From contig JAIKWV010000035.1 in assembly GCA_024684435.1 (NCBI GenBank), forward strand, positions 4,343 through 68,342: a stretch of DNA of 64,000 bases. The letters are read 5' to 3'. This DNA is from Clostridiales bacterium. GTDB taxonomy: Bacteria; Bacillota; Clostridia; Oscillospirales; Acutalibacteraceae. Below are positions 2,392-53,992 of the stretch, in pieces (the first letter of the stretch is position 1; every line of letters begins with the position of its first letter). The position numbers and the translations under genes were made by a program. The notes beneath the pieces were generated by a model, which saw only the letters and a program-made list of their open reading frames with translations, had not been told where the DNA came from and did no database searches.

Positions 2392-3470
2392 TTGATTATC
2401 TTCTTTCCAATAATTCTATAATTGCCAAAGCCATTGTTTTCAACCGTATAAACATAATTTCCTATGCATTTTTTGAAGACGGCATGATTTGATTGCTCTA
2501 CCGTAAGATTTGTTGCAATTTCGCTCATTACATGGGCGTATTCATCTTTTGGAAGAATAATTGTTTCAAAAGATGATGTGCCGCGTTTTGCAAACTCTAA
2601 ACTCTCACCAGGTTTTAAGATTTTTGCAGACGAAACAGTTTTATTCTCAAGAAACGAAGAAAAAACTGGATCAATCAATTCTGTTTCGCCTTTTACATGA
2701 GCGACGAAACTTTCAGCAATATATTCACCATTACTTGAATTTGCATAACCGGAAATTTTAGGAGCATATGTGCTCATATTCCGACCGATAGCGTTATTTG
2801 TTGTAGCGTCAAGCGCTTCCCACTGAACATGATGTCCCATTTCGTGGGTAATATAATCACTCACGCTACCATCGCCTACCAAAGCCCTACCTGCGCGCTG
2901 ATAAGTTAAAGCTAAATCCAGCTGACTGCCAGAGAGATTGTCGATATTTTGCATGACTAATTTCCATGCTTCATCACTACGACGATTATACGCTGATAAG
3001 GTTTCGGCGTTTTTTAGTATATCCTTATTAAGAAATATACCATGTTCAACCGGATTGTATGCAGCTACGGCATCCGCACCGTCCTTGAATACTTTTTTCC
3101 CTTGTAAAGATGTTGGTGAAATAGTCCTTATACCGTTAAGTTTTGATAGATCATAATCCCTGTAAATATTGTAAAGAGCTTCATTGACCTCATTTGCGTG
3201 TTCAATCGAAATACCCTTATAAACAATTTCATTTTTGAAAGTTGGCGAATAGCCTGAGCCTACAAAACGCCTTGCGTACTCTTCGCACTCTTCAACAGTA
3301 TCAAATGGAACATACTTTACCGCTTCATTGTAACTGTTTTTGTTGAGTTTTTCAACCTCTTTCAAGGTCTTTTTCCGTTTATCTTCCCAGTATTTCAGCT
3401 TTTCCCTGTACTTTTTGACGTTCTCTGGGTCAACGGATCCGGCTTCAAGGCGCTTATACCGCTGCACCAT
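2388..3470 (-). CDS. HExxH zinc-metallopeptidase-like protein, probably the 3' remnant of a larger mobile-element (polyvalent/MuF-associated type) gene
   Basis: 360-aa ORF with ITHEMGHHVQW (HExxH). No SD before ATG 3470. The frame stays open for 34 more codons upstream (to 3572) without any start codon. More AT-rich than its neighbours. Confidence 0.6.
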   Translation of the reverse strand: MVQRYKRLEAGSVDPENVKKYREKLKYWEDKRKKTLKEVEKLNKNSYNEAVKYVPFDTVEECEEYARRFVGSGYSPTFKNEIVYKGISIEHANEVNEALYNIYRDYDLSKLNGIRTISPTSLQGKKVFKDGADAVAAYNPVEHGIFLNKDILKNAETLSAYNRRSDEAWKLVMQNIDNLSGSQLDLALTYQRAGRALVGDGSVSDYITHEMGHHVQWEALDATTNNAIGRNMSTYAPKISGYANSSNGEYIAESFVAHVKGETELIDPVFSSFLENKTVSSAKILKPGESLEFAKRGTSSFETIILPKDEYAHVMSEIATNLTVEQSNHAVFKKCIGNYVYTVENNGFGNYRIIGKKIIK

Positions 3471-8648: not shown

Positions 8649-8682
8649 TTGCAAGGTAAGTCCGGGTGGACCTACCCTGCAA
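8649..8682 (-). other. strand-specific 3' stem-loop immediately after the stop of the giant gene
   Basis: On the minus-strand RNA this is a 15-bp stem with two G-U pairs and an ACCC loop. On the plus strand the same positions are A-C mismatches. No U-run follows. Confidence 0.45.
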
Positions 8683-8696
8683 TATTCAGTTGTCAA

Positions 8697-11600
8697 TTAA
8701 CCGTTCTCGGTTTCGTCCTTCTCAAGCTCCAACTGTTTGATCGTAATCGTGGGAGTGGAATCTGTTGCCTTGACCCAATCCTCGCCGGACTTAACGTTGA
8801 TCTTGTAAGTGCCGGGAACGATAAGTGATGTGATAGTCCAGGTTTTGTCGGAAACGCTTACAGCACTGTTGCCCTTTGCAAAGGTGTAAGTACCCTTAGC
8901 GTTCTCAAGCTGGATCTTGCTGACGTCGCCTTTAACAACGATCGTGATGGAACCGTCATCATTCTGAACAGCTGATACGACGCCTGTCTCAAGAGTAAGT
9001 ACCTGTGACTTGTCATTATCTGTCCACTCGCTGACATCGTTGCCGCTGACCTGCTTGACAACATACTTTGCGCGTGCATTGTATGTGCCGTCCTTAAGAG
9101 TTACTCCGGTGATTGTCCAGATCTCTTTGGTTGCGTCGTTTTCATCAGCCGTAACGGTAACATTTTCGCTGTTCTTCGCGAAAACCCACTCCTGATACTC
9201 AGAACCTTCCGTTGCATCCTGATCGATACGAACCTTTACAGCGCCTGCTTCAGCCTTGATAACGACTGTGCCGTTATCATAGCTTGCTGCATAGACAGCG
9301 CCGTTGCTCTCGACAACTACTACGACGGGATCATCGATAACCTCAGCAGCTTCTACTGTGAATGTTGCTGAATCTTCTTCCGCTGTGTACTCGCCGTTGA
9401 ATCTTGCATATACGGTGTAAGTTGCAGGATCAAGTTCATGGTTACCAACGGTCATGTCGATCGTCCAAACCTCGTTGTTGGCATCATTAGTTGCGATAGT
9501 AACTACGTTATCGCTTCTGAGATAAGTCCACTTGCCGGTTACTTTTGTGCCGTCCTTGTACTCGACTTCGCCTTCGAACTTGATTCTCTCAGCGTCCGCG
9601 GTTACTTCGATAACAAGGATGCCGTCGGTGTAGGTTGCGGAGTAGACCTTTGCGTTCTGCGGTACATTCTCTACTACAAGAGTAGCTGAATTATTGCCTT
9701 CTGTCCACTCGCCTATGCCGTTAACAAGGAACTTGCCGTTTACGACATATTCGCCGTCTCCGTAGTATGTCTCGGAAATTGTCCAGGTTTCTTTACCGTC
9801 CACAGGATCGGAGATATTAACAAGAGCATTGTTCCTTGCATAAGTTATTGTCTTGATCTCGTCGCCGACAACAACGTTTACAAACTGGATCTTCTGAGCG
9901 CCTGCGCCTGCTACGACGGTTACGCTCTTGTCAAGTCTGTTGAATGTTGCGGAGAAGATCTTTGCAGTGTCGGATGCGTTGCTTACTGTAAGTTCAACTG
10001 ATTCGGGATCCTCTGTCCACTCACCGTTGTACTTAGCCTTTACCATGTAGACGCCGTCTTCAGCATAGTCGTTGATGGTCCATGTCTCGGTACCGTCGTC
10101 GTTCAGAACAATGGAAACTTTAGCATCATTTCTCAGATATGAGAGTACATAAGGCTCGCCGTCCTTGGTCTTGTTGAGAGAGACCTTGGTAGCGCCTGCG
10201 AATGCTACGATCGTAATAACTTCAGGTGTGTACTCTGCAGATATAACTTTCGCTGCCTGCGGCATATTTGTTACGGTAAGTGTCGCTGAATGATCAGCGT
10301 CTGTCCACTCGCTGATAGAGTTCTGCTCATCGATCACTACAACAACATACTTAGCGCAAACTGTGTATACGCCGTCCTCAACAGCAGAGGTAATTGTCCA
10401 AACTTCCTTGCCTGCTTCTGTTGCGGATTCTGCAACGGTTACATCCTCATCGTTTCTTGCAAATGTGAGCATGTACTGTGCATTATCCTTGGTCTTGTTG
10501 AGAGAAACCTTTTCAGCGCCTGCGTCTGCTACGATAACAAGAGTCTTGGTATCGGGATCGTAGGTTGCTGAGTAGACTGCCTTATCAAGCTCAGGTGTTT
10601 CCTCAGATACAACGAGTGTTACTGAGTTTTCATCATCTGTAAACTTGCCTGCGTACTTGCCGCGTACTGTGTAAGTAGCGGGATCAAGGAGCTTGTTGAT
10701 GGTCCATGTGTCCTTCTTGGTCAACGGATCGGTCTCAACCGAAGCGTTATCCTTATCGACGGTCCATACGAAGTCAGCAGTCTGGATCTGATGGTTATCA
10801 TCCTGATATGTGATCGTGCCTTCAACGAGGATCTTGTCTGCGCCTGAATCAACGACAACAACAAGTACGCCGTTGTCATAGGTCGCGGAGTAGACCTTCG
10901 GGATCTCGGTCGGGTTCACTACTGTGAATGCTGCGGAATGATCGTCATCCGTCCACTCATCAGTATCGAACTCTGCGAACTTAGCGCGTGCGACATAATC
11001 GCCGTTTGCAAGGTAAAGGTCAATAGTCCAGATCTCTCTGTCGTTTGTTGCATTGGGCTCAACCGATACAACGCCATCAGAGGTCTTCGTGTAAGTCCAT
11101 GTCATAAGCTCGCCGTCAACCGTCAGGCAGATCGCGATCTTAAGAGCGTCTTTGTCTGCCTCAACAGTGATGATGTGATCCTCATAGCTTGCAGCATAGA
11201 CAGCCTTGGACTCAACAGGAGCGTAGGAAGCTGTTGCAACGATGTTGTATGCGGGCATGGTTGCGGGAGTGGCGATCGGTGTATTGTTATCGTCATTCTT
11301 TGTCCATAACCACATACCGCCCTCGGGAGCAGCTACGTTGATAGCAGCGCCATAGATGAAGGTCTGCTCTGTGGTGTTTTCACCGTCTACGAATGTGATG
11401 GTGAAGCTGTTCCTTGTGTAGTCAGCGTAAAGTACAAGAGAATTGTCACCAAGTACTGTGCCACTTACTGCAGCGGGAGTTACAAATCCTGCATCAGCAG
11501 ATGCATCCGCGGTGTAGGTTACTGTATCGCCTACAAGAGCATCAGCCACGGGGATAGTTGCGATTGTTTCGAATGTCTGACCGTCAACGTTCTGCTGACG

Positions 11601-14600
11601 AACAACAACTGTGTAGCTTGCGCGTGCAAATGTAGCTGTTGCTGTGACATTCTCTGCGGGCATTGTCGCGGGCTTGGTGCCTGTTGACCATGTCCATGTG
11701 CCGGGGATATTCTCAACACCCTCGCCATCAATGGTGGGAGCGTCGGGATCAGCAACTGCAGCGCCGTAGATGTACGGAACCTCTGTGCTGTCATTGCCGT
11801 TAATGTAAGTTACCGTGTAGGTATTTCTCAGATATTTTACCTCGATAACAAGGCCGGATTCAACTGTCTTGGTTATAGCTTCGGGAGTTGCGATACCGGT
11901 GTCAGTATAGCCAAGATCGGTGAGCTGATCGGGAGTGTAGGTTACTGAAGAACCGACAAGAGCGTCTTCAACTGTTGTTGTCTTAACGGTTGTGAAGGTC
12001 TCACCGTCAGTGTTCTGCAGCTTGATAACTACCGTGTAGTCAGCCTTTGCGAATGTTGCTGTTGCTGTGAGGTTGTATGCAGGCATCGTGTTGGGAACCT
12101 GTGCGGGAACCTCTTCGCTTTCAACGGTCTTGGTCCATACCCATGAACCTGTTACGTTGTCAATTACAGGATTGCTGCGTACGTCAACATCAGCACCGTA
12201 GAGATAAGAATCTGTTGTGCTGTCGTTGCCGTTTACATAAGTGATCGTGTAGGTATTTCTCAGATATTTTACCTCGATCTCAAGGCCGGTCGCAACTGTC
12301 TCAGTTATCGGAGCGGGAGTTGCGAAGCCTTCCTTGGCTGCGGGAGTATAAGTTACTGTGTCGCCGATAAGAGCATTTTCCACTGTGATCGTATCAATGG
12401 TGGTGAATGTCTGACCGTTAGTATCCTGATCCTTGATAACGATCGTGTAGGAAGTGTAACCGAATGTAGCTGTTGCTACAAGGTTGACAGCGGGCATCTC
12501 GTTGTTCTCGGGAGCGGTTGCGGGTTCATTATCCGCAGTCTTCCAAGTCCACTGACCTGTTACCGTAGCGCCGTCTGTGCCTGCCTTGGTGGGATCGTTG
12601 CGTACAACAACAGTTGCACCGTAGAGGTAAGACTCTGTTTCGCTGCCGGTCTCGGTCACGTAAGTGATGGTGTAGGTATTTCTCTTGTAGTAAACTGCAA
12701 GAGTTGCATTGCCATCCGCGTTGATTGTGGTCTCTGTCACAGTAATATCCTCGTCAATGCTGAAGCCCATCTCGGGTCCTGCAGGCTCGAAGGATACCTG
12801 GCCGCCGATGATGCCGTAAACCGGATCAAGAGCTGTGCCGTTGTCATAGTTGCCGGAAACATCCATTACATACTTAACGGGAGTAATAGTGATAAGCTCG
12901 GGATACTGAGCAACAACTGTTACGTCCTCTGTGGGCATTGTGAATACATTGTCCGCAGTGGGCCATACCCAGATACCGTCGTTGCCGTTTCCATCCTTAG
13001 GAATAGCGGGTGCATCGTACTCGTCGATAACAATAGCAGCGCCGAAGATAACATCTTTGCTCTCTACTGTTACGCCGTCGATCACGAAGTTGAGCTTAAA
13101 GGTATTTCTTGCGAACTTAACATTAAGTACAAGAGCCTCTTCGCCAACTGCCGGGATCTTGCCGGTGACATTGCTGTCATCGCTAAGGGTGTAGTTTGCG
13201 GGAACTTCGTAATCCGCTGTCACGTCTGCGTCAACAGCACCGTTGAGTGTCTGTGAAGACGTAAGCTCGTATGTGCCGGAAGCGTTCATGGTCCAGTACT
13301 TGACCGTGTAGGTGTTGATGCTGCCTGTGAAGTCAGCAGTTGCTGTAAGGTCAGCCGCGGGCATCTTGGCGGGTTCCACAGTAGCCATATTGTCAGCTGT
13401 GGTCTTCCAGTTCCAAACGCCTGTTGCGCCTGTTGCTGCATCAACAGGAGCCTGTACATCGACAGGAGCGTCATAGAGGTACTCGACCTCTGTGCTGTCA
13501 TTGCCGTTTACATAAGTGATCTTATAAGTATTTCTTACAAGATAGATGCTAAGAGTAATGCCCTCTGTGGTCTCGACCTTGCCTGTAGTTGTGCTGCTTG
13601 CGGCAAGTGTGTAACCGTTGATAGCTGAAGCGCTGGGAGTTACATCAACTTCTGTGCCGAGAACAACCTGTACAGGATCTGAGATCTCAGGATCGCCGTA
13701 TTCGCCGTCAAAGCCCTGTCTGTAGGTGTAGACGGTGTATGTACCGTAAGCACTGCTGTAATCAGCTGTTGCTGTAAGGTCATAAGCGGGCATCGTTGTG
13801 GGTGCCTGAACAGATTCGCCGCCAACGGTCTTTGTCCATACCCAAACGCCTATTGCGCCGTCAGCTTTCACAAGCGCGGGGATTTCGACTGTCTCGCCGA
13901 AACGGTAGCCGGCTACTTCGTTATCCTTGCCTTCTTCAACAAAGGTAATAGTATACTGGTTAGCCTCGTATGTAGCGGTGATTTCGGTGTCTCTGCCGGG
14001 CATAGTCGGGGGTACCTGACCCCAAGAGCCTGTGTAGCCCTCTGCGTGTGTTCCGCGGTAGACCATTTCGGGAAGAGTGATGTTGGAAAGGTCTGCGCCG
14101 TACTCATAAGAAGCCTCGGAAACAACGTAACCGTCTGCTACGAATGAAAGCTTGAATGTACCGTTAGAGTATACTGCGTGGTATACAAGGTTCTCAGCGA
14201 TCATTGATCCGGGGATAGCCGCAACATTTTCATCTTTGTCGTACCATACGCCGTTTCTGCCTTCAAGAGAAGGAACATCGGGGATGCTGACGTTCTGCTC
14301 GTATACGTATGTATCGACCTGGTAGGTAGTACCATCTTCCTTGAGGTAAGTGATGGTGTAGGAATTTCTTGCGTAGTAGAGTACGATGGGTTTATCTGTG
14401 CCGCCCTGCTCATCAGTGATGGTGGCTTCGAGATTTGAAGTGTACTCTGCGTCAGGATCAGTTACAAGTGTGAAACCTGTGAATGTAGGAGCGGTCTCAA
14501 CCTTAACTGTATCGCCGACATTACCGTAGAGAGCAATGTCTGTGCCTTCGGGAGCAACGTATGAACCGTCAAGCTGTGCCTTGTAGATGGTGGGAACGAC

Positions 14601-17600
14601 CTTTACGGGATACTTTGCAACCGCGAAGAGTGTCTCGTTTGCTTCAAGAGCGGGCATCTTTGCGGGCTGGCTGCCGTCCTCGGTGTTCCATACCCAGATA
14701 CCGTCGTTCTCGTTTTCATCCTTGGGAACATCAACAGGAACGATCGGCTGCTCATAGTAGTATTCCTGAGAAGCATAAGCATCTTCGCCTGCTGCTTTGT
14801 AGTAGGAAACTATGTACTTATCTCTTGCGATGAATACCTTAAGTACAAGTGAGCCGTCCTCTGCTACCATGCCTTCTGTTACACTGCCTTCACCAAGCTT
14901 GTAACCTGTTGCGATAGAAGGATCAGCATAGACTGTAGTACCGATGGTGCCGGTCTTGGTAGTGGTGATCTTGTCACCCCATGAGCCATCAGCATTCTGA
15001 TACTGAGTCTCGATGGTGTATGCTGCAAAGCTTGAGCTGTAGTTAGCTGTAGCTGTAAGAGCATAGGAAACGGTCTCGGGAGCCTCAAGAAGCTTGGAGC
15101 CGTCCTCGGTCTTTGTCCATTCCCAAACGCCTCTCGGATGTTCTGTATCTGTAGGAACGTCCACGGTGGGAACGGGTGCGCCGAAGTATACATTCTCGGT
15201 GTAGATCACGCCGGAAAGTGAGCCGTTAGGTGTTGTGATCTGGTCTGCTTCGTTGATAACGAACTTGACCTCATACTGTGCTCTTGCAAGGTAAACAACA
15301 AGGTTTACATTGTTGTCTCTTTCAACTGTACCGGTAAGTACGTTACCCTGAGCATTCTCGTCAAAGTAGAAGTTATCAAACGTCTCCATATCATTCTCTG
15401 TGAGAGTGATAACTGTGCCATAGGTAGCTTTATTATCGTTTACGACCTTGAATGCCTCGGTGGGATATTGACCGTCAATACCCATTCTGATGTAAGAAAT
15501 AGTATAATTATACTCATTCTCAGTCCAGATAGCGTAAAGGGTTACATCCTTTGTGATGGTGTACTCGTCGTCGAGTACTGTGGTGGCATTGGCAGATTCT
15601 GCCCAGCCTGCGAATGTATAGCCCTGTCTGCTTACGCCGGGATCAGGAAGAGTGATCGTGGTGTTTTCTGTGCCTGACATGGACTGGGGAGCTGTGCCTT
15701 CTGCGCCGTTAAGATCGAAATCAACGGTGAAGGTCTCGGGCTCTGCCTGCCAGGTGACCTCTGTAGTGAGGTTAGCCATGGGAGCTTCGCTGCGCTCTCC
15801 GCCGGAAAGCTCGGAGTTCTTGGACTTGGTAACTGTGTAGAGTGTTCTTGAAAGGCCTTCTTCGCCGGGCTTCTGGTTGCCGATGAAGTAATCGCCTACC
15901 ATGAACGCTGTGCTCTTGTCTAATGTAGCGCCTGCCTTAAGCTTGATGGCGAATGTAGCGATGGTAACATCGTCAAAGCTCTGAGCAAAGGGAGCGCTGC
16001 TTGAATACTTGGTGGCGCCCCAAAGGAGAAGGTCAAGACCATACTGGTTTCTGAATTCGAGATCATCGAATGCGCTCCAGCCGGGTCCCTCGGGATATAC
16101 GCCGGGACAAATCCTTGCCTTGTTGCTGTTGGTGGTCAGATCGTGTTCACGGAACAGCGTGGTCACGCCGTCTTCAGCATAGCCATAGAACTTGTTAAAT
16201 CCGTTATCTCCGGTGAAGTACTCTGTCTTCGGAGTTGTGTAGCCAAGTGTGGTGCCTTCAAGTGTGCCCTTTTCAAACATATCGGAATTGATAAGGATCG
16301 GGATACCGAAGGTAGCTACGGGGAAGTTGGAGGAGAACTTAACATCAAAGATGTAAGTGCCGTCGTCCTTAACCTCTGTGTTCTCGATTGTGAACTTAGC
16401 GTTGTAGTTTTCTGCGTAGTACTCCCAGGTGTACTGGTTGCGGTAACCGAACTCGGTGCCAACAGTGCCGTCGGGAGCTGTGACTGAGTATTCATACTCT
16501 TCGTACGCAGGTCCAAGAGGATCGATGTACTGTTTGTATATACTCTTGAGGGTGGTGAGATATCCGTCAACTACAGACTGTTCAGCCTCTGTGCAATCTG
16601 TTCTGAAGGAAAGAGCATTTGCAATAGCCGACTTGGCGGGCTCTTTGTAGTGCTCAAGCTCTTCAGCCGCGCGCTCAAGGTATGTACGCTCGGTTCTGGT
16701 CTTGGGAAGAAGCGGGAAGTATGACTGGAATCCAAGTAAATCCTTTGTGGTTCTATCACGTACAACGGAGTCGCTCTCAAGGTAATTGTAAAGAGCTGTG
16801 TAATCAGCATACTTAACAGTGCCGTCGTCGATATCAGCGACAAGGGTTATTGTTGCTGAATCGTAAGCACCGACATACTGGGGAGCGCTGAATGCCGCGC
16901 CGTTAAGGAGCCAGCCTTTGAAGCTCTTGGGAGATTCAGGCTGAGGAGCCTCCGGTAAAGCAAATACTGCGCCGTAGTAGTAAGTCTGGCTTGCGTAAGG
17001 AGCCTCTTCAACAACATAGTTGAAGGTGTACTGATTTCTTGAATAGTAAACTTTAAGTGTAAGGGTGTTATCAACTGTGCCTACATTACCGGAAAGATTA
17101 CTGCTGTCTGCATCAAATGTGAATCCGGTTGCTGCCGCCGCAGGTGTGAAAGAAACATCTGAATTGGCTGATGCGGTCTTAGATGTGGTATCTGTCAGCT
17201 GATATTTGCCTGTTGTATCCATCTCATAGGTCTCGACCTTGTAGGATACAGCGATGTCTTCGTAATGAAGAGTAGCAATGAGGTTGTATGCGGGCATTGT
17301 TGTGGGAGCAGAAACAGTATTGTTGTTGCTGTCCGTCCATACCCATGAACCGTCCTTGCCGGGGATCTGATCGATACCCTTAATAGTTACTACTGTGCCG
17401 TAGGTAACTTCAACTGTTTCGATCACGCTGCCGTTTTCATTCTCATAAGTGATGGTGTAAATGTTGGGTGTGTAGACCGCCTTGATCTCAAGATTCTGAG
17501 CGGGCATTGTTGCGGGAGTCTCAGCGTTCCATGATCCTGTGTTTCCTTCGGGAACATTGGGAACTGCGGGAGCAGCAGATGTGTTCTGACCAAACTTGTA

Positions 17601-19595: not shown

Positions 19596-19665
19596 ACTGA
19601 ACAATTTCCTTTCTAAAAATTTTTTATTCTTGCGCACGAAGCCGTGCGTTCAAACCAAAAATAAT

Positions 19666-20847
19666 TTAAGTAGTGGGTACTGTAAACGTACCGGAACAGT
19701 TCTGTGAATAAGTCCTGTAGCCGTAATAGAACAGCTCCAGGTTGGACACGTCAATGGCGTCCGCCGCCGTATCGGCGTCCAAATCACAGGCCTTTTTGAA
19801 CGGACTTCCTACCGTTCCGTAAATCATATCGTATTCTATATTGACCCAATCCATTATACCGTTGGATGCGGCGTCAGCAGTACTGAGATCAATATCGTCG
19901 ATACCGCAGTCACCGTTCACGTCTCCGAGGATAACTATATAATATGATTTCAGAAGCACACCTGCGTAAGTTATCTCAAGCAGTGTTCCTGTACCATATC
20001 CTCCTTCCGAAGGGGTAACAGTCATCTCAGCGCCGCCCACAGCGTCAACATAGACCCTGATATCATCCTCATCAACAAAGATGTTATAGATGACATCGTC
20101 GGGGAAGCCGTATACATACCCGTTAAATCCGAGAGCGTCAGCCGCGTCGTCGTCAAATTCCTCAATAATGACTTCGGTGGGAGCGCCTTCCACGGGAGCG
20201 ATCCCGGGATCAAGGGCGCCCAGGCTGATCTGCGTGGGAGTCAATATAAGAGTTGAGCCTACAACAAAATTCCATCTGTATATCGAATCCGGGTTTTGCG
20301 GATTTTCCATCGCCTGATTGTAGAACAAGGTAGAGTTGGGCGGGATAAGGACGTTGCCCGTACCCGATGAACCCTCTTTTACCCTGAGCTGGAATGTAAC
20401 ACAAACCATTCCGTCAGGCTCATTATAACACTTGGTGAAACCGCTTTCAGCTCCGCCTATCCAATGGAGCAGAAGCAAGCCGTATCTGTTGGGTCTGTAG
20501 CCCGAAGGATAAAGCTTGGTCTCGCCTGTCTTGTCGATGGCGGAAAAAATCGCGTGGTCAGACGCCAAAGCGCCAAATGCTCTGGCATTGCCGTTTTCAC
20601 CCACAAGCTCAAATGCGTTTAAATCAAACAACACAGGCCAACGCATATTGGTGGCATAGAAGTTATTTTTAACATTGACATAGATGGTGACTATGTCCCC
20701 GTCCCCCGCCTCAGTCACGTTGCTGCTGAGGGTAACTTCCATATGCTCGGTTCCGGTAGGAGTACCCGCCGCCTGAGTGTTGAACACAAGGGCGCTTGTA
20801 AGCATTAAAACGGCAAGCATTGCTGAAAATATTCTTTTTATTTTCAT
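19666..20847 (-). CDS. secreted cohesin-like plus dockerin-like adaptor protein
   Basis: 393 aa. Signal peptide MKIKRIFSAMLAVLMLTSALVFNTQAAG. GGAGGAAGGTG SD upstream. N-terminal cohesin-like module and C-terminal duplicated Ca-loop segment. Confidence 0.85.
   Translation of the reverse strand: MKIKRIFSAMLAVLMLTSALVFNTQAAGTPTGTEHMEVTLSSNVTEAGDGDIVTIYVNVKNNFYATNMRWPVLFDLNAFELVGENGNARAFGALASDHAIFSAIDKTGETKLYPSGYRPNRYGLLLLHWIGGAESGFTKCYNEPDGMVCVTFQLRVKEGSSGTGNVLIPPNSTLFYNQAMENPQNPDSIYRWNFVVGSTLILTPTQISLGALDPGIAPVEGAPTEVIIEEFDDDAADALGFNGYVYGFPDDVIYNIFVDEDDIRVYVDAVGGAEMTVTPSEGGYGTGTLLEITYAGVLLKSYYIVILGDVNGDCGIDDIDLSTADAASNGIMDWVNIEYDMIYGTVGSPFKKACDLDADTAADAIDVSNLELFYYGYRTYSQNCSGTFTVPTT
19720..19941 (-). 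other. dockerin-like module (two Ca-binding loops)
   Basis: GDVNGDCGIDDIDLS ... CDLDADTAADAIDVSNL, i.e. two DxNxDxxIDxxD-type loops separated by about 35 aa. Confidence 0.65.
20208..20742 (-). other. cohesin-like module
   Basis: GDIVTIYVNVKNNFYATNMRWPVLFDLNAFELV ... DGMVCVTFQLRVKEGSSGTGNVLI. Confidence 0.5.
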
Positions 20848-20892
20848 TGAACCAACACCTTCCTCCCCGCAAACGGGGTCATAAGGTATATT

Positions 20893-20918
20893 CCGGGAGG
20901 GTATTGATTCCCTCCCGG
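20893..20918 (-). terminator. 9-bp GC hairpin between the 1543-aa and 393-aa genes (partial terminator or processing site)
   Basis: CCGGGAGGG / 8-nt loop / CCCTCCCGG. Only a weak U tract follows on the minus strand. Confidence 0.35.
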
Positions 20919-20966
20919 AGAGGAAATCAATAATTAATATATTACAATATTAATTAGCCGGATTAA

Positions 20967-23900
20967 TTAGCCGGGATAATTGAAGCTCTGGTCTTCGATA
21001 GCGAACGAATAGTCATCGAATACAACTGGATCGATATCGTCAACAGCGCCGTCGAAGTTTACATCGCAGGAAAGATACCTGGGATTGTCGCCCGGTAATA
21101 CACTTCCGTCTGCCCAGTCTTTGCTGTAACCAACAGCGTCAACTATTTCGGTCTTGTCAGCGTCATCGATACCGCCGGAGCAGTCAGCGTCGCCGAAGAG
21201 GACGGTGTAATATGTCATTACAAGCTCGTCGCCGTCGTAAACCTCAACTCTTGCGCCTGTACCGAAGTTACCGTTTTCATTTTCGACAGCAACTATAGTT
21301 GCGCCGCCTGTGGGCTCTATCATACCGTCAATGGTGGGATAGTAGTAGTCGAATCCGAAGATGTAACCGAAGTCGATGGAATCGGGATCAAGAAGCATAC
21401 CGAAGTCACCGAAGAAGCTCTGTACAGCTTCAACGTCAAGGATATTAAGGGTGGTGCCCATATCCGTAGCGCCGACAATAGCCTCGATGCCTGCCTTGGC
21501 AAGGTATACGAGATTGCTGATAGCCTGGCTCAGGTTCTGAACAGCCGTGTTGATGATCTGCTGCTGTGAGGCGGCAAGATCGGGATTAACGTTGAGAGCC
21601 GCCATAAGAGCTGCCGTGAACGCCGCCCATGAATCCTCTGTGTATCTGCTGGAATCAGTGTAGGTCTGAGCCTGTGCAATGATGTTGGTAAGAGCTGTGT
21701 AAGTAGCCTTTAATGTAAGGCCTAAAACTGCATTGTTAAGGGCGGTCGCCAGTCTCTCGATGAGGTTCTGGTTGTCAACTGTCTTAGCAAGGTTGCGTGA
21801 AAGTGAATTTGCAGCGTTGAGCGCATTTTCAAATGCGGTCCATGAAGCTGTTGTGTACTTATCCTTATTGGAAAGGAGGACGGAAGCCGCGTTTGCAATA
21901 GCGTTGTTGAGTGATGTGTAATCAGCGTTTTCAACAAGCATCTTGTAAGCAAGGATGAGTTCGCCTCTTGCCTTGTTTACCTTGCTCTGACGAAGACCTG
22001 AAACATAGCCGTCTTCTGTGAGCCAGCCGTTGCCAAGGTCGTCTTCATCCAGCGGGATAGCTGCCACTGTGTTAGCAAAGTCTCTTGCTATTGTGTATCT
22101 ATCCCATGAAGTCTGGCTGTAGTTGCCCTGCTCTGTAAGTCCGCCGTATTCATCAACAGCTGCAAGGAGCGCGTCGTTATTTGCGACAACTCTGATAAGT
22201 CTGTCGGCATAGATGCCGAATCTGTAAGATACGTATGAAAGTTTGACTGCGTCGACTGTGTCCTTACTGTTGATAAGCTTTTCAGCCGCTTTCTTCTCAT
22301 TTCTGAAGCGGAGATATGTGTGGGGAACATAGTCGCACATGCTGAAGAACTCATACTCATCATCATAGAACTTATAATAAGTATATTTTTCTTCGCCTGT
22401 CTCGGGATCGATCTCGGGATCGACTGAATAGTCGATGTTGGTGGGAACTACTTCCTCGACCTTATCCTTGAGAGCGCCTGTTCCGCCTGAGCCTGTCTTT
22501 ACGCAAGCCTCAAGGGCGATGGTAGCGTTCTTAAGGTTTTCGCTGAGGGTCGTGTAATCAGTGATGTAGCTCGGGGTGTAGAACGAAGTATACCTCATGG
22601 GAGCGTATACTTTTGTGATAGCCGCCTCAAGAGCGTCTGTGTAATCTGCCCAAGCCTGAGAGCCTGTTGTGGTCATGGTCTCGGTCTCGCCGTCCTCATT
22701 TACGACCTCATAAGAGTAAACCTTGGAGCTGGTATCGTAATTAGAAGCCTGGCGGTTAGCCTTTACAGCGCTGCTGACCAGTGAGGGAAGGTTTGCGTTG
22801 TTGTAAATAACAACATAGTGATCGAAGGGGATGGTCTCTGTTGCGCCTTTGTAATATGTAGCGCCACAAAGATATGAGAAAGTTGATGCGTAAACGCCGT
22901 CCGCGGGTAATGTGGCTGTGTTGCTCACCGCATAGGGAGCTATGTTCCACTTACCGCCGTTCATGTTGGTGTTAATGGTTGTAAAGTTAGCTGCCGATAC
23001 ACCGCTGGCGGCAAGAGTAGCGTTCAGTAATACATTGCTGCGTGTGATGGTGGCGTCTTCTGAGAATGTCTCCTCGTCGGGAGATTTTCTTCTTGAAATA
23101 GAAAATTCAACGTCAAGAAGGTCTCTGATCTTCTTGTTGCGTGTAGCCGTGGGGTTCTTGTCATCTTCCGATACATAGGAATTGATGTATGTAACCTTAT
23201 AATAACTGCCCTTATGTACGTTCTTATTATCAAGCAGAACGTCATTGTTTACAATGATGTCATCGTCATCCAGAAGGTCATCGTCTGATGTTCCACCGGC
23301 AACATAGGTATAGAGCTTCTGCTCTATTGAGCTGGTGGTGATAGCGGAACCATACTCGCCGAGAATATCATACTTGATCGTGATGATAAGAAGTGAGTTC
23401 GGAGTGAATGTACCGGTGATGTCAAAGTACGCTGATTCGCCGCCGTTGATGTTGATGTTGGTAACAGCGTTGTTGTTGTACTTGACAGAAAGACCGGACT
23501 GGTTTGTGGTGATGGACTTGATCCTGTACTTATACAGCTGATCCTGATGTGTTTCAAAATCAGAGTATGTCGCAAAGGTGTTGATACCTGAAGATTCATT
23601 GTAAATATAGAATCTGGTGTTTGTGGGTTTGATGCTGTCGCCCAAGCTGATATAGGGATAAGCAAACTCCTGGGGAGAGCTGAGGTCAAGAGCGGAACAA
23701 ACAATGGGAAGAAGCGCAGGAAGGAGTGTGCCCGTGCATCTTGTATAGAGGTTATTGATAATGTTCTGAACAAGGTTCGGAAGATTATCGTTGATGCTGT
23801 TACCGCTGATCATAGCCTCAAAGTTATCGTACTGGATAGCGGTACCTGAACCGAATACCATATTAATAATGTTTTTAAACAAACTTATTAATATGTATCT

Positions 23901-25598
23901 AACAGTCTGATTAAGTTCGCCTGTGGGGTTCTTCTGGAACAGATCAAGAATGCCCTTAAGATCAAGGTTGAAGAGATTGCCGATGATGTCATCCTTGATT
24001 ATGGACTCAAGGTCATTTCTCGCACTACCGTTTGCCTTGTTGGGCAGCCAGGAAGAATTGAACACCTGGAAGAAGATGCTGTTCAGTCTCGCCCAACCGG
24101 TGCCTGATGATGAAGCAACAAGACCGCCATAATACTTTACACCCCAGTTGACAATAGCGTTGAGTGTTTCATCAAAATCAAACTCATAAATGTTATCTTC
24201 ATAGTCAAGCTCAAGGTCTATTGTCTGAGAAAGGAAGTAGATCGCAAAATCTGCGCCGATCTCAAAGGCTGTGTCAAGATCCGTGAGATCCATATCAGCG
24301 TAAACACTGTACTGAGAAGGAATGTAGTCGCCTGCCAGCTCTCTGAGAGTGTAGTTGGCAACCTCAACAAGAGTGTCCATATCATCAGGGACATTGATGT
24401 AGTCCATAAACGCATTGATGAGTGAACGCGCGACATAAGCGAGGAACTGCTCATCGCCTTCAGCAGTGTCCGGGAAAGTAGCGGGATCTATGACCTCGAT
24501 GTAATCAAGGAAGAAAGCGCCGCCTGTCTCGCCGAATACCTTCTTTGCGGCGTGAACAAGGTTGTCGAACAAACCGTCATTGCCGCGGGTGTAGTCCCAT
24601 GTAAGGCCAAGGCTCGGTTTTGCGAGAGCCATGAAGAAGTCGCCGAGAACGTCATTGAAGTGGTCAAATATCGTCTCGCCGTTGCCCCATGTGTTGAAGT
24701 CGATGGTGGGAACAACGTAATCTGTGTTGATAAGGAGACCGAGTGAGGGGTCGTCCCTTACACAGCGCTTGACCCAGGATCTGACGTTGGTGTCAAGTAA
24801 TTTGTTTACCCTGTCATTGAAGAGAAGGCGGAACGCCTTGTCAAGCAGATCGTAGAAAGTTGAGGTCTCGATATTAACGGCACCTGCAAGCTCGGGGAGG
24901 AAGCCTGTGTATTCGCCGGTATCGGGATCAAGCTCGCCTACAAGGTACTTGTCAATGATGACCTGGACCATCTGATCCATTGTCTCGTTGACTACCTTGG
25001 GAGCTTTCTGATCGTAAGCCAGCTTGTAGACTATGCCCTTGATCATGTTGGGAATGTCAAGGTCAAAGTCAACAAAGCCATCAAGAAGACCAAGGGAAAG
25101 GGCGCCGGGAGCGCCTTTCTTAACAGCAGCCTTTTTGATGATGCCGCTGTTATCTTTGAGGAACTTAACCAATGCTTTGATAACGTCAAGGTCCGTGGAA
25201 GTAGCGCCGGCTCTGCGGGGAGCGCCGTCACCGGCTACCGCGCTGACGTTGAGGTTCTGGATATCGCCCATCATGGAAACAACTGATGAAGCAACACCCC
25301 AGACTCCCTTAATGCTGTCAAAGGCCTTGTCGATAGAGCTGAAGTCCAAAGTGTAATCAATGAGACCTTCATACTTTATCGGGATGATCACGTTTTCTTT
25401 TGCAAGAATCCTGTCAACCTCATCCAAAGCCATTGATGCGTACTGCTCAGTAGTAAGGATAGGCTTGTCAACTGCGTCGTAATTAGTGACAGATCCATCC
25501 TTGTAGCCTGCGTACTTTGCATTAACGCCGACGGAAGTTATTGAAAATACCATAACTGCCGCCAAAAGGAAACTGATGATTCTTTTTGTCTTGCTCAA
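20967..25598 (-). CDS. large secreted protein with unknown N-terminal ~1000 aa, FIVAR-like helical repeats and a C-terminal dockerin-like module
   Basis: 4.6-kb ORF. ORF-track ATG 25613 is itself part of ATGGAGGTG, so TTG 25598, which lies 8 nt after GGAGG, gives MSKTKRIISFLLAAVMVFSITSVGVNA (a signal peptide). Confidence 0.88.
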   Translation of the reverse strand: MSKTKRIISFLLAAVMVFSITSVGVNAKYAGYKDGSVTNYDAVDKPILTTEQYASMALDEVDRILAKENVIIPIKYEGLIDYTLDFSSIDKAFDSIKGVWGVASSVVSMMGDIQNLNVSAVAGDGAPRRAGATSTDLDVIKALVKFLKDNSGIIKKAAVKKGAPGALSLGLLDGFVDFDLDIPNMIKGIVYKLAYDQKAPKVVNETMDQMVQVIIDKYLVGELDPDTGEYTGFLPELAGAVNIETSTFYDLLDKAFRLLFNDRVNKLLDTNVRSWVKRCVRDDPSLGLLINTDYVVPTIDFNTWGNGETIFDHFNDVLGDFFMALAKPSLGLTWDYTRGNDGLFDNLVHAAKKVFGETGGAFFLDYIEVIDPATFPDTAEGDEQFLAYVARSLINAFMDYINVPDDMDTLVEVANYTLRELAGDYIPSQYSVYADMDLTDLDTAFEIGADFAIYFLSQTIDLELDYEDNIYEFDFDETLNAIVNWGVKYYGGLVASSSGTGWARLNSIFFQVFNSSWLPNKANGSARNDLESIIKDDIIGNLFNLDLKGILDLFQKNPTGELNQTVRYILISLFKNIINMVFGSGTAIQYDNFEAMISGNSINDNLPNLVQNIINNLYTRCTGTLLPALLPIVCSALDLSSPQEFAYPYISLGDSIKPTNTRFYIYNESSGINTFATYSDFETHQDQLYKYRIKSITTNQSGLSVKYNNNAVTNININGGESAYFDITGTFTPNSLLIITIKYDILGEYGSAITTSSIEQKLYTYVAGGTSDDDLLDDDDIIVNNDVLLDNKNVHKGSYYKVTYINSYVSEDDKNPTATRNKKIRDLLDVEFSISRRKSPDEETFSEDATITRSNVLLNATLAASGVSAANFTTINTNMNGGKWNIAPYAVSNTATLPADGVYASTFSYLCGATYYKGATETIPFDHYVVIYNNANLPSLVSSAVKANRQASNYDTSSKVYSYEVVNEDGETETMTTTGSQAWADYTDALEAAITKVYAPMRYTSFYTPSYITDYTTLSENLKNATIALEACVKTGSGGTGALKDKVEEVVPTNIDYSVDPEIDPETGEEKYTYYKFYDDEYEFFSMCDYVPHTYLRFRNEKKAAEKLINSKDTVDAVKLSYVSYRFGIYADRLIRVVANNDALLAAVDEYGGLTEQGNYSQTSWDRYTIARDFANTVAAIPLDEDDLGNGWLTEDGYVSGLRQSKVNKARGELILAYKMLVENADYTSLNNAIANAASVLLSNKDKYTTASWTAFENALNAANSLSRNLAKTVDNQNLIERLATALNNAVLGLTLKATYTALTNIIAQAQTYTDSSRYTEDSWAAFTAALMAALNVNPDLAASQQQIINTAVQNLSQAISNLVYLAKAGIEAIVGATDMGTTLNILDVEAVQSFFGDFGMLLDPDSIDFGYIFGFDYYYPTIDGMIEPTGGATIVAVENENGNFGTGARVEVYDGDELVMTYYTVLFGDADCSGGIDDADKTEIVDAVGYSKDWADGSVLPGDNPRYLSCDVNFDGAVDDIDPVVFDDYSFAIEDQSFNYPG
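20990..21212 (-). other. dockerin-like module
   Basis: GDADCSGGIDDADKTEIVD ... CDVNFDGAVDDIDPVVF. Confidence 0.65.
21520..22130 (-). repeat. FIVAR-like helical repeats
   Basis: Recurring YSQTSWDRY, YTTASWTAFENALNAANSL and YTEDSWAAFTAALMAAL. Coordinates approximate. Confidence 0.6.
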
Positions 25599-25906
25599 GA
25601 TTTGCACCTCCATAAAATATTTTTGCTCTTACGAGCTAATGGTAACCAAACTAAGAACAGCATCCGCTAACACGTTTTACTATATATAATAACACTTATA
25701 AGTAAAGCATATTATCGGCGACAAAACAGATCTGCTATCACTCCCTCTTTAATCAGAATGTTTTGTTCTTGCCCAAACACTAAAACGGGTTAGAATAATC
25801 GGACTGTCAAAGTACCGGGCAATCGGGAAACGTATGCCTTCAAAATCAGAAATCGACTTCAAATGGGCATAACATCCCCCATAACACCACTCTTATGGTT
25901 AATAAT

Positions 25907-25936
25907 AATATAACTCAATGCAGGGGCTCCTGTCAA
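25907..25936 (-). promoter_or_regulatory. one candidate promoter for the surface-protein genes
   Basis: Minus strand reads TTGACA-N18-TATATT. It would give a ~300-nt leader. Other AT-rich candidates exist in the 513-bp gap. Confidence 0.3.
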
Positions 25937-26126: not shown

Positions 26127-29100
26127 TCATTCAAAAATCACCCTGTGACTGTCGTCATCAATGGGAACAAAGTCTGATTTTGCCCCGTCTACAAGCATAT
26201 TTCCGGTTTTGCCGCCATTCAAGTGTATCTTCACATCCGTTTTCCCAAGTTTAATATTGACCTCTGCTTTTCCGAAATTTTCCGGCAATTTCGGTGTGAT
26301 ATACAGCCTGTTTCCCCGCTTTTTGATCCCGAAAAGATGCTCGATGACCGCCCTGTAATACCATGCGGCGGAGCCTGTATAGAGGCTCCAGCCCCCTTTT
26401 CCGGCAATGCCGAGAGCCGCATAAACGTCCCCGGTAAAGGCAAATACTTCACAGCCGTACCTTAAAATATCCCTCGTTTTGCCCTCCGATCCGAGACGAT
26501 TCATGGGGTTCAGCATGTCAAGCAGACGCCATCCTTCGGCTGTCATTCCGTTTTCCAGCACGGCTATGCAAAGCCACACCGCGCCGTGGGTATATTGACC
26601 GCCGTTTTCCCTTATTCCCGGAGGGTACGCGGCTATATATCCCGCTTTTTTGACCTTGTCAAAGGGCGGAGAAAAGAGCTTTATGATGCCGTTTTGCTCA
26701 TCCGCCAGATGCTCCACCGCCGTTTTCAAAGCAAGGCTCCTGCGGCTCATATCCGGCATATCCGCCAATACAGCAAAGGACTGAGTGAGGCTGTCAACGG
26801 CACATTCCGTCGCCCCTCTGCACCCCATAGGCTCGCCGTCATCATAAAACGCCCTGAGATAGCGGTCCCCGTCCCATGCGTTTTCATCCACAGCCGCCAT
26901 CAAAGCCCTGCTCCGCGCCTTCAATTTCTCTGAATTTTCCCCGTCTCCCCTGATTTCGCAGACCGCGGCAAAGTTCTTGAACACAAGGCTCATGAACTGA
27001 GCCAGCCAAACGCTTTCTCCCCTGCCTTTGATGCCAACCTCATTAAACCCGTCATTCCAGTCCCCGCCCATTATCAGGGGCAAATCATGCTCTCCCAGGC
27101 GGTATGAACGCTCTATAGCCCTCATGCAGTGATCGTATACGGTGCCGATAGTATCGGATTTTTCCGGAGAAAAATAGCGCTCTGTCTCATTTTCATGCAA
27201 TTCGTCGGCTTTGATGTAGGAAATCTCTTCATTGAGCAAAGAAATGTCCCCCGTTGCCGACACGTACTCAGCGGTAACGTAGGGCAGCCACAGCATATCG
27301 TCACTGCATCTTGTTCTGACGCCGCTCACACCCCTGTTCTCGGTGGAAAAATCATGCCACCAGTGGAGCACGTCCCCCTCCTCAAACTGTACGGCGGCAC
27401 AGCGGCATATGTGCCTGCGCACAAGCTCCGGTCGGAGCATTATCATTGAGGAAACGTCCTGAAGCTGATCCCTGAACCCCCAGGCTCCTCCGCACTGACA
27501 GAATCCTGTCCTGCCGTAAAATCTTGCGTTCAGAATTTGCACATTAATCCATTTGTTTATCATTGCGTCAAGATATTTATGCTCCGTCTTTATTGTAATT
27601 GAATTGACGGTTTCAGAGCTGTTGACATTCTGATATTTTAAATTTTCAGCCGCAGTCTCCGAAGGCTCCCAGGCAAGCACAAAGTGGTGATCCATTCTTG
27701 AACCAGAGGCAATTTTATAGGTTTTGCCCACCGCCGCACAGGTGTTTTCAAACACTTCATTTTTACCGTTTTGTCCCCAGAAGTCAAATTTTGATAACCA
27801 CAAATTGTCCGCTGTATTATCTGCTGTCAGCTTAAACGTTCCGCTGTATTTGCTCAGGGGTGAGCTGACAGCAACACCGTTCTCCATAATACGATATTTA
27901 TGCAAACCCGAATTCCTGCTGTCCTGACCCAATACAGGCTCGGCGTAATATATCAGATTTACGGTCTTTTCACAGACAGCGTTATTGTATAACGATATAC
28001 TTATATCCTTTTCTGTACCCGTTTTCGGAACTCTTACTTCAACTTCAAAATCTATATCCCCGGCGGAGCCTGTCCAACGTACATTGTCTGTGGAAAAGAT
28101 GGCGGCAGATCCGGAGATCATATTGTACCGCCTGCCTTCAAGCTCCAGAAACAACTGTTCCCCGATATTGTCTGAGATCTGGTCATTTGACCATGGAGTC
28201 AGCTTGTTCTGCTGTGCGTTCATCGCCCATGTAAAGCCAAACGACTTGTCACTTATAAGCGTACCAAAATACTCGTTTGCCAGTACAGTACACCATGGTT
28301 TTACAGGATTTATATTATTGTGGTCAACAATTATATTTTCATCTGTAAAGATATTTTTCTTTACATTATTGCTCGATTTATATATTTTCTTTGGTGAATA
28401 CAAAACAGGGGCTTCTTCAAGCGTGCCGTATTCTTTCCCGTCATCAAAAAAGGAGGAAAACGCGATTACGGCATTTTTATATTCTTCATCCATTCCGAAG
28501 AAATTTATGATATGGATACCCGCATCCCTGCCGATAAGCTGCTCGCACCCCTGATTCTTTACAGCATTTCTAAGCCCGGAAAGTATGGGCGTATTGTAAT
28601 CTCCCCCCTCTTCAAACATCAATATCAGATCCACCGGTATTCCCGTTCTGTTCAATCCGCGCACTGCTTTTGCGTAAGGAATACACCTTGAAATGTCGTT
28701 TTCGCTGTTGATTTTTACGGCAATAATTGGATGGTCTCCCGATATTTTCATGCTCCAAAGCGCGTCGATACCGACGTTATTTGCCGCTGTCGCCGCCTTC
28801 TGAACCGCTGTACGGCTGTGATCGTACAGTATTTCAGGCAGTATCTGATCGGCAACGGCGCCCTCCATTCCCCCCGTTCTGAACACCTCAAGTCCGCCGT
28901 ACTTTTCTGGTATTCCACCTGTTCTCCGCAGAGCTATCAGGTTGTTCTTTGCCTCCTCCGCAGTGGATGCCGCGCAAAGATACAGGTTCTCCTCAAAACT
29001 TCCTTTTCCCTTTAGTTTTACAGGCAGAGCGAGAGCACAGCAGGAGTCGGGATTCCCCCTTAAAGGTCTGAAATCGGACTTTATTCTGACCCCGCCGTTT

Positions 29101-33380: not shown

Positions 33381-33456
33381 ATTATTTTCCTCCGTAACGA
33401 TTGATTTCACGGAAGATATTGTTTCCCTTCTTTGCTGAAATATCCCCTCCCGTCCG

Positions 33457-53964: not shown

Positions 53965-53992
53965 TATCTTCTTTCCGTTCCTTGATTTCAAA

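Follow-up and report, generated by a model that had tools for sequence, protein, structure and literature searches.

A cassette of three genes, referred to here as P1, P2 and P3, was recognised in a 64-kb stretch of DNA from a Clostridiales bacterium (64,000 nucleotides of contig JAIKWV010000035.1; this whole stretch is called the window). With a probability of roughly 0.6, the cassette is proposed to encode an extracellular cohesin-dockerin complex of structural or binding proteins rather than recognisable enzymes. Adhesion or matrix building was inferred to be the most likely role because the make-up of the proteins is of the surface or matrix type, with Flg_new domains, FIVAR domains, long repeat arrays and no enzyme.

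The three genes are consecutive, co-oriented open reading frames (ORFs) on the minus strand at 20967-25613 (P1), 19666-20847 (P2) and 8697-19637 (P3), with intergenic gaps of ~119 nt between P1 and P2 and ~70 nt between P2 and P3. The longest P1 ORF extends up to an ATG at 25613, and a TTG at 25598 was deemed the likelier start from its Shine-Dalgarno sequence, GGAGGTG. The starts of P2 and P3 were assigned to the ATG at 20847 (Shine-Dalgarno region GGAGGAAGG) and the ATG at 19595 (Shine-Dalgarno region AAAGGAAA), respectively. Residues of P1 are numbered from ATG 25613, and the modules of P3 are given in the GTG numbering of its longest ORF. The genes were delimited as follows.

20967..25598, minus strand: P1 gene, secreted 1543-aa FIVAR/X-dockerin protein
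19666..20847, minus strand: P2 gene, 393-aa protein with the predicted order signal peptide, cohesin, X-module, dockerin (adaptor)
8697..19595, minus strand: P3 gene, 3632-aa secreted repeat protein with no dockerin and no anchor motif

The lengths of 1543, 393 and 3632 aa are those of the public protein records, in which P1 is named "FIVAR domain-containing protein" and P2 (MCR4616244.1) "hypothetical protein"; the current annotation of all three is hypothetical or merely "FIVAR domain-containing". Each protein was found to have one hydrophobic segment, at the N terminus, followed by an Ala-X-Ala-type cleavage site. A preliminary description of this DNA had claimed three minus-strand genes of these sizes with signal peptides, and this was borne out by the ORFs, the Shine-Dalgarno starts and the hydrophobic segments; every peptide motif quoted in that description was also located in P1-P3. 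The three genes are regarded as one conserved cassette and are probably an operon. The stretch that separates the P1 stop codon from the P2 ribosome-binding site contains an almost perfect inverted repeat, TTGATTTCCTCTCCGGGAGGGAATCAA (20903-20929, minus strand). No T-run follows this repeat, which might act as a hairpin for RNA processing or attenuation and so determine the ratio of P1 to P2 expression.

The major data for the dockerins and for the cohesin of P2 concern the following modules.

21201..21365, minus strand: P1 X-module, ~aa 1417-1471, homologous to the P2 X-module
20991..21200, minus strand: predicted P1 dockerin, aa 1472-1541; its Ca loops are DADCSGGIDDAD and DVNFDGAVDDID
20212..20760, minus strand: predicted P2 cohesin module, aa 30-212
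19939..20211, minus strand: P2 X-module, aa 213-303, a beta-rich domain that links the cohesin to the dockerin
19708..19938, minus strand: predicted P2 dockerin, aa 304-380; its Ca loops are DVNGDCGIDDID and DLDADTAADAID

Judged from their sequences, P1 and P2 each end in a dockerin, as part of paralogous X-module-dockerin pairs. The calcium (Ca) loops were defined by a 12-residue pattern of the EF-hand type, D.[DN].[DNS]...[DNE]..[DE], with ligand positions 1, 3, 5, 9 and 12. This pattern occurs exactly twice in P1 (at 1475 and 1517) and twice in P2 (at 309 and 355), compared with 0.16 and 0.016 chance matches per protein in shuffled sequences, and was absent from both P3 and the neighbouring 2427-aa protein. 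The relationship between the two tails was seen with hidden Markov models (HMMs) of the P2 family, as the X-module HMM matched P1 at E 5.4e-10 and the dockerin HMM matched P1 at 3.5e-6, and by direct BLASTP comparison, which gave 32% over 71 aa (E 1e-8) across the X-module and the first dockerin repeat. The P2 X-module is conserved in all relatives and was modelled by AlphaFold2 (AF2) as strands with a predicted local distance difference test score (pLDDT) of 55-76. When a 17-protein P1-family profile was compared to all PDB chains, only dockerins were returned (2ccl_B at 2.6e-5), followed by weak EF-hand proteins, and the corresponding 16-protein P2-family profile likewise returned only dockerins, with E-values as low as 6e-8, above the EF-hand noise. 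Pfam Dockerin_1 (PF00404) was passed by 8/17 members of the P1 family (best 2.3e-9) and 10/16 members of the P2 family (best 1.1e-10), whose tails look like textbook dockerins, for example GDLNGDANIDSSDAG...ADLNGDGNVDSADAG in locus L001. The duplicated Ca-loop tails that had been described for both proteins were therefore upheld, by two loops in each and by the behaviour of the family profiles and of Dockerin_1 in the relatives.

Cysteines were observed inside or beside the Ca loops of both tails (21051-21200 and 19765-19923), in the contexts GDADCSGG and SCDVNFDG in P1 and GDVNGDCG and ACDLDAD in P2. The closest homologues (P0002-P0004) have kept them in part, and the canonical relatives, which are more distant, lack them. 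With this arrangement, the Ca loops of the dockerins may be held by a disulfide clasp.

The N-terminal module of P2 is predicted to have the nine-stranded, flattened beta jelly-roll fold of a cohesin. This was deduced from a predicted structure, an AF2 model built from a six-sequence alignment, whose mean pLDDT was 56.8, with values of 70-84 over most of residues 30-170; the alignments used for structure prediction were shallow because the word-indexed homologue searches yielded few proteins (6, 1 and 6). Comparison of the P2 model to the PDB with Foldseek gave 45 top matches that were nearly all cohesins (E 1e-8 to 1e-5), the one exception in that range being a CLIPPER adhesin domain. The target-normalised template modelling (TM) score was ~0.5-0.6 for single-cohesin targets, and the matches spanned type I, II and III cohesins together with those of Ruminococcus flavefaciens and Clostridium perfringens. 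The best matches were to the CohI9-X-DocII fragment of CipA (4fl4_I and 3kcp_A), with ~380 aligned columns and the same three-module order. The P2 cohesin family was also aligned by HHalign to the three Pfam-positive cohesins of a scaffoldin in locus L008, with a probability of 87.7% (E 3.4e-6), and Pfam Cohesin was reached at a sub-threshold level by 3/16 P2 relatives (best 3e-4). As the fold matches, HHalign and the sub-threshold Pfam scores agree, P2 was assigned as a putative Coh-X-Doc adaptor. The cohesin-like character that the preliminary description had ascribed to its N-terminal module from the strand pattern is consistent with this predicted fold.

For P3, two candidate cohesins and three kinds of repeat were delimited.

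18693..19475, minus strand: module m1, ~aa 55-315, possible cohesin with a large insertion
18255..18686, minus strand: Flg_new (Listeria-Bacteroides) repeats 1-2, with further copies at 17664-17873 and 15525-15731
15753..16415, minus strand: module m2, ~aa 1075-1295, probable divergent cohesin
11190..15506, minus strand: beta-repeat array of ~20-22 alternating repeats of ~80-90 aa, of two types, one of them Flg_new_2-like, mapped with self-profiles
8715..11204, minus strand: eight C-terminal repeats of ~100 aa each

Module m2 was matched to the P2 cohesin family by HHalign with a probability of 80% (E 1.4e-5) as a single sequence and 85% (E 6e-6) with its orthologue added. The alignment was collinear and near full-length, covering 159 columns and positions 5-170 of 181; no significant match was obtained when m2 was compared directly to canonical cohesins. 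The comparison between m1 and m2 gave 39-59% (E 1e-4 to 3e-4), and m1 was found to carry an insertion of ~100 aa. In a control scan of 59 segments of 270 aa along P3, P1 and the neighbouring 2427-aa protein, only segments within m1 (27.4 and 24.2) and m2 (31.1, 40.1 and 27.7) exceeded the background of 7-21. An iterated profile search over 683 ORFs was also started from the P2 cohesin family. It recruited the N-terminal modules of third genes in related loci first and then all three canonical L008 cohesins; m1 was recruited at iteration 3, with a full-sequence E of 3.3e-5 and a domain E of 2.5e-3, E-values at such later iterations being inflated by self-inclusion. The position of m1 is that of the N-terminal module in the third genes of relatives, right after the signal peptide and, in some loci, before Flg_new repeats. 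Two of the three groups of these N-terminal modules matched the P2 cohesin family by HHalign at 95% and 90%, and the third group (L009-L015) was linked only indirectly, by a 98% match to the second group. Both m1 and m2 are conserved, at 47-61%, in the P3 orthologues on contigs L022 and L024.

The Listeria-Bacteroides repeats noted earlier were recovered as four copies of Pfam Flg_new in P3 (E 7.7e-41). The beta-repeat array gave weak Pfam Flg_new or SdrD_B hints at most, and the C-terminal repeats matched no Pfam family; three copies of this last repeat type are present in the L022 orthologue, and a single copy was seen in the third genes of L009-L011 and L013-L015. The P3 repeats that the preliminary description had labelled Ig-like are internal repeats to which Pfam assigns no family. 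A short helical segment precedes m2. Between the Flg_new repeats, at aa 465-600 (17838-18245 of the window), a beta module of ~120 aa was observed that ends in "...THFSIYALA" and has no Pfam match.

The cassette is conserved as a unit. Full-length P2 relatives were found at 15 loci in a scan of one genome per GTDB species. Every one of these loci belongs to a metagenome-assembled genome (MAG) of Acutalibacteraceae or of unclassified Clostridia, and several come from ruminant or other animal gut samples according to the record titles. In 15/15 of these loci a P1 homologue (1330-1442 aa) lies directly upstream of the P2 homologue and a large secreted protein directly downstream. The same order was repeated on two closer contigs, L022, in which a 2504-aa P3 orthologue of 45-48% identity has both m1 and m2, and L024, on which a 1542-aa P1 and a P2 are followed by the first part of a P3 orthologue, so that at least 17 related genomes are involved. 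Synteny of the trio, raised in the preliminary description as a check, was thus found throughout the 15 loci and on both contigs.

The two dockerins were found to vary together from genome to genome. The mean identity between the P1 and P2 dockerins was 46.1% within a locus, compared with 30.9% across loci, and 0/10,000 permutations reached the observed within-locus value; the partner from the same genome ranked first in 11/16 loci and second in the other five. Simple divergence after an old duplication would leave the within- and between-genome identities equal, and the excess is therefore taken to indicate concerted change. A shared cohesin partner would be the simplest cause of this pattern in the sequences, gene conversion being also possible. 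Given their paralogy and this co-variation within genomes, the dockerins of P1 and P2 most likely bind one and the same type of cohesin.

Some related loci carry further cohesin or dockerin genes. The third gene ends in a Pfam-positive dockerin in L002 and L008. In L008 the cassette continues (8667-16300): the third gene consists of a cohesin-like N-terminal module, 13 Flg_new repeats and the Pfam dockerin, and a fourth gene, truncated by the contig end, has three canonical Pfam cohesins (E 7e-33) besides 12 Flg_new repeats. In L009-L011 and L013-L015, a small secreted protein of 279-291 aa with a weak cohesin-like N-terminal module and a dockerin is encoded after the third gene. The dockerin was Pfam-positive where scanned (L013), the gene is absent from the window, and the product looks like a second mini-adaptor. 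The genes are located as follows.

L009, 13643-14503: small gene for a cohesin-like module plus dockerin
L010, 14302-15138: the same
L011, 14199-15035: the same
L013, 14286-15122: the same
L014, 14278-15150: the same
L015, 14266-15102: the same

P1 begins with a signal peptide, which is followed by ~620 aa of all-helical sequence, then by two or three beta domains and helical repeats with FIVAR, and finally by the X-module and the dockerin. The regions upstream of the X-module are the following.

23664..25517, minus strand: helical N-terminal head, ~aa 33-650, conserved, without family assignment
22764..23663, minus strand: beta-rich region, ~aa 650-950, AF2 strands with pLDDT 70-83 in parts
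21384..22763, minus strand: helical repeat region including FIVAR, with FIVAR matches at aa 1231-1298 (21720-21923)

The claim of FIVAR-like helices was confirmed by Pfam FIVAR, which matched P1 at E 1.2e-8 for the whole protein and 2.7e-13 for the segment, and FIVAR was present in 16/17 members of the P1 family. The head had no match in Pfam, NCBIfam or PDB sequences, and a 16-sequence profile of the N-terminal 900 aa returned nothing from the PDB at E <= 10. An AF2 model of residues 33-1000 predicted helices in the head with low confidence (pLDDT 50, predicted TM score 0.27), and the lack of a family assignment is attributed to the poor quality of this model. Foldseek comparison of the model listed axonemal proteins, pilins and PAD N-domains at TM <= 0.1, with nothing reliable on the helical head. 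The matches covered only tandem immunoglobulin (Ig)-like domains, those of pilins and PAD N termini, and the beta-rich region of the model probably represents tandem Ig-like sandwiches, although these matches were weak (TM <= 0.1). A stretch of P1 at aa ~917-1078 (~22380-22863 of the window) gave the top background score in the cohesin scan (HHalign 20.8, E 0.024 against the P2 cohesin family) and might be either a further cohesin-like sandwich, highly divergent, or simply noise.

No catalytic family was found in P1-P3 by Pfam, NCBIfam, PDB-sequence or P1-family profile searches at any threshold tried. Searches of PDB sequences with phmmer gave only noise for the three proteins (PQQ-propeller designs, and InlB at 0.026), and no carbohydrate-binding module (CBM), protease or known adhesive domain was detectable in the trio. 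The earlier statement that the trio holds no glycoside hydrolase, CBM or protease therefore agrees with the Pfam and NCBIfam results, and no recognisable catalytic domain was found in the N-terminal region of P1.

In the proposed assembly, P1 would be the cargo, in which a conserved and novel helical head of ~620 aa is followed by Ig-like beta domains, FIVAR helical spacers and the X-module-dockerin. P2 would be the small adaptor, in which a single cohesin is followed by an X-module and a dockerin, and P3 the repeat-rich scaffold of 3632 aa, which lacks a dockerin and has two candidate divergent cohesins, m2 being probable and m1 possible. There would thus be two plugs of one specificity, on P1 and P2, and up to three sockets, namely the P2 cohesin, m1 and m2. 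The likeliest assembly would have P1 and/or P2 docked on P3, with the cohesin of P2 holding a further P1 or P2. Such an assembly would be hierarchical and non-covalent; the pairings, the function of m1 and m2 and the attachment to the surface are inferred. As P2 combines a plug with a socket, and the specificities of the two may match, chain-like polymerisation could occur. A more specific form of this assembly, to which only a minor share of the likelihood is given, is a sortase-independent modular surface fibre in which the P1 head is mounted non-covalently, through P2 and the co-evolving dockerins, on the repeat stalk of P3 to form an adhesin or matrix fibre. The cargo, adaptor and scaffoldin logic that the preliminary description had proposed was retained for the Coh-X-Doc adaptor and the dockerin tails; the scaffoldin role of P3 was retained only in part, m2 being probable and m1 weak.

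Several results weigh against a cohesin-dockerin complex of this kind. Pfam searches had been suggested as a check, and Pfam Cohesin (PF00963) did not match P1, P2 or P3, either at full length or as excised modules. Dockerin_1 did not match full-length P1 or P2, and the excised tails of the window scored below the gathering cut-off of 22.9 bits (P2, 19.2 bits, E 1.4e-3; P1, 9.6 bits, E=1.4), although this cut-off was passed by the relatives enumerated above. The window dockerins are divergent, with a long insert between the repeats and cysteines beside the loops, and their low Pfam scores were attributed to these two features. The missing Pfam matches were not taken as a refutation because the family-level and fold-level tests succeeded. 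In addition, the dockerin part of the P2 model was unreliable (pLDDT <40), and the strongly conserved head of P1, for which the model was poor, may be a catalytic domain of a novel type. No cell-anchor signal was found in P1-P3 or their equivalents: P1-P3 have no C-terminal hydrophobic segment, LPXTG-like motif or SLH/LysM Pfam match, and anchor motifs were likewise absent from nine complete third-gene products and the L022 orthologue. The direct comparison of m1 to the P2 cohesin family gave an HHalign probability of just 6-12% (E 2-6e-3). For m2, essentially no homologues were found, as an exhaustive HMMER search against 1.84 billion representatives returned only m2 itself and two partial matches to its C-terminal edge and the adjoining Flg_new repeat, and a JGI metagenome scan with the m2 alignment returned only the L022 contig. 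On balance, profile comparison suggests that m2 is probably a cohesin, and for m1 the odds of being one are put at about even. Of the two cohesins previously claimed in P3, one was accordingly kept as probable and the other was weakened, and the claim that P3 has no dockerin stood.

Three other explanations were weighed against these data. If m1 and m2 were non-functional beta-sandwich spacers derived from cohesins, the P1 dockerin would plug into the P2 cohesin only. The partner of the P2 dockerin would then be a scaffoldin encoded elsewhere, and P3 a separate, repeat-rich surface protein that is simply co-transcribed. The low m1 score just given is in keeping with this, as are the poor scores of both modules against canonical cohesins and third-gene N-terminal modules and the large insertions in both. 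The explanation was nevertheless considered doubtful, as the m2 alignment is near full-length and collinear at 80-85%, m1 and m2 alone stand out among the 59 scanned segments, and the orthologues on L022 and L024 have kept both modules (47-61%); furthermore, a cohesin-like N-terminal module opens the related third genes, with two of its three groups at 90-95% to the P2 cohesin. A different possibility, that P1 is itself an enzyme of an undescribed family with a glycan-active or other hydrolytic or lytic head, would make the cassette a minimal one-enzyme cellulosome-like complex. It derives from the conservation of the head among 16-17 homologues (~30% identity, with dozens of invariant D/N/E/R/Y/W positions), and several families of polysaccharide lyases and glycoside hydrolases are built from an all-helical domain with beta sandwiches after it, which serves as a lead only. 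Conservation by itself is no sign of catalysis, however. Searches of Pfam, NCBIfam and PDB sequences gave no match, even when a 16-sequence profile was used at E <= 10, and Foldseek on the low-confidence model returned no enzyme fold for the helical part; this possibility was deemed improbable.

The trio could also be part of a larger complex of the cellulosome, amylosome or mucinolysome type, in which the cohesins of P3, and perhaps of P2, recruit dockerin-bearing glycoside hydrolases encoded elsewhere and P1 is an accessory binding subunit. In function, the locus would then be neither self-contained nor without enzymes. The Ruminococcus bromii amylosome belongs to the same GTDB family, and cellulosome scaffoldin genes are typically clustered apart from the enzyme genes. 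The cassette of L008 adjoins the scaffoldin with three canonical cohesins, which indicates that cassettes can be wired into larger systems. That this GTDB family builds such complexes is further illustrated by the Limousia mucinolysome (PMC12997984). Against this, no other ORF of the 64-kb window matched dockerin or cohesin profiles, and the nearby GH31, GH16 and GH94 proteins have no dockerin. The genome-by-genome co-variation of the P1 and P2 dockerins also fits a closed set of partners, though further partners are possible. A larger complex was regarded as unlikely while deserving some weight, and the complex of structural or binding proteins was preferred.

The surroundings of the cassette were examined by consensus scans and by annotation. 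The scans gave two features, based on consensus only and, for the promoter-like site, not evidence of function.

25907..25936, minus strand: promoter-like site, TTGACA-18-TATATT, 11/12, ~300 nt upstream of P1
8476..8495, minus strand: terminator-like hairpin, ~200 nt downstream of the P3 stop

The upstream neighbour (26127-33410, minus strand) encodes the 2427-aa protein used above for comparison, a multi-pass membrane protein that has the catalytic and supersandwich domains of GH94 and a glucoamylase-like domain. It also matched DUF3131 weakly, below the cut-off, and its layout resembles that of cyclic beta-1,2-glucan synthases. It was rejected as a member of the system, being a multi-pass membrane protein with no dockerin and no counterpart in the ORFs of 21 related loci. 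No sortase was found in the 64-kb window. Elsewhere the window carries ordinary chromosomal genes, among them those for ribosomal protein L21, Prp, YajC, GH31, GH16, the sporulation protein YabQ and fumarase, as well as HPF, RlmL, an ABC transporter, MnmA and a V-type ATPase operon. Horizontal transfer of the cassette was rejected, the GC content being unremarkable and the flanks being housekeeping genes. Two minus-strand ORFs, at 2388-3470 (360 aa) and 52729-53991 (420 aa), matched no Pfam family at E <= 1e-5.

The cassette resembles the Ruminococcus cellulosome in that cargo, adaptor and scaffold are encoded side by side. P2 is like the ScaC-type adaptors of R. flavefaciens and Ruminococcus champanellensis and the X-dockerin dyads of ScaB/ScaA, being small and secreted with one N-terminal cohesin and a C-terminal X-dockerin, and the R. 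flavefaciens cohesin structures 4n2o, 5lxv and 4wkz were among its top structural matches. Unlike the Ruminococcus cellulosome, the cassette has a cargo without a glycoside hydrolase or CBM, no sortase-anchored ScaE-like protein in the locus, cohesins invisible to Pfam, and a scaffold made mainly of Flg_new-type repeats. The best match to the whole P2 model was the Clostridium thermocellum CipA fragment CohI9-X-DocII (PDB 3KCP and 4FL4), which has the same Coh-X-Doc order (E 1e-8) at 13-15% sequence identity; the high root mean square deviation between the two was ascribed to differing domain orientations. CipA is a nine-cohesin scaffoldin that integrates enzymes, whereas P2 is a stand-alone protein of 393 aa.

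Cohesin-dockerin pairs outside cellulosomes have long been recognised, according to the review literature as cited in later papers. C. perfringens joins its toxin glycosidases by FIVAR-dockerin/cohesin pairs, in which a FIVAR-dockerin meets the X82 cohesin on GH84 and GH33 enzymes (PMC12997984). These toxin complexes lie outside plant-fibre degradation and have FIVAR before the dockerin, as P1 does, and the C. perfringens cohesin structures 2jh2 and 2w1n were among the P2 matches. Both partners are glycoside hydrolases in C. perfringens, whereas the cassette has no detectable catalytic module. The R. bromii amylosome and the Limousia mucinolysome are non-cellulose cohesin-dockerin assemblies from the family of the cassette MAGs, Acutalibacteraceae, and a cohesin and a dockerin occur together in some of their proteins, as is proposed for P2. 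They are defined by dockerin-bearing amylases or mucin-degrading glycoside hydrolases (PMC12997984), of which the cassette has none. Many ruminococcal cohesins have been seen only by structure prediction, and Flg domains are drawn in scaffoldin-like proteins, in the parts consulted of Minor et al. (bioRxiv 2026, 10.64898/2026.02.05.704116). As far as those parts go, the cohesins of that study, which concerns Ruminococcus enzyme complexes, escape Pfam and are recognised by fold or profile like those of the cassette; a cassette with a conserved helical-head cargo is not described in its main-text passages, supplementary tables apart. Finally, Gram-positive fibrillar adhesins share with P3 a make-up of repeat stalks (in P3, four Flg_new copies, ~20-22 beta repeats and eight C-terminal repeats), and the FIVAR spacers and distinct head of P1 are comparable to theirs. 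The cassette differs from them in that head and stalk would be joined non-covalently, with no LPXTG or other anchor and no adhesive domain found.

The component parts are of known kinds, and what was not found described is the conserved three-gene cassette, with its non-enzymatic cargo bearing a novel head and its two co-evolving dockerins. Because sequence-based annotation misses such cohesins, Pfam-based censuses of cohesin-dockerin systems undercount. These systems have been studied almost entirely as organisers of carbohydrate-degrading enzymes. The cassette differs from them in that, across at least 17 gut Acutalibacteraceae/Clostridia genomes, co-evolving plugs are combined with a cargo that has a large conserved domain and no recognisable enzyme. 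If the complex is truly non-catalytic, the cassette would show that the assembly principle of the cellulosome and its relatives also serves adhesion or the building of a matrix in the gut microbiomes of herbivores and other hosts, and it would provide a compact three-protein system for studying dockerin specificity.

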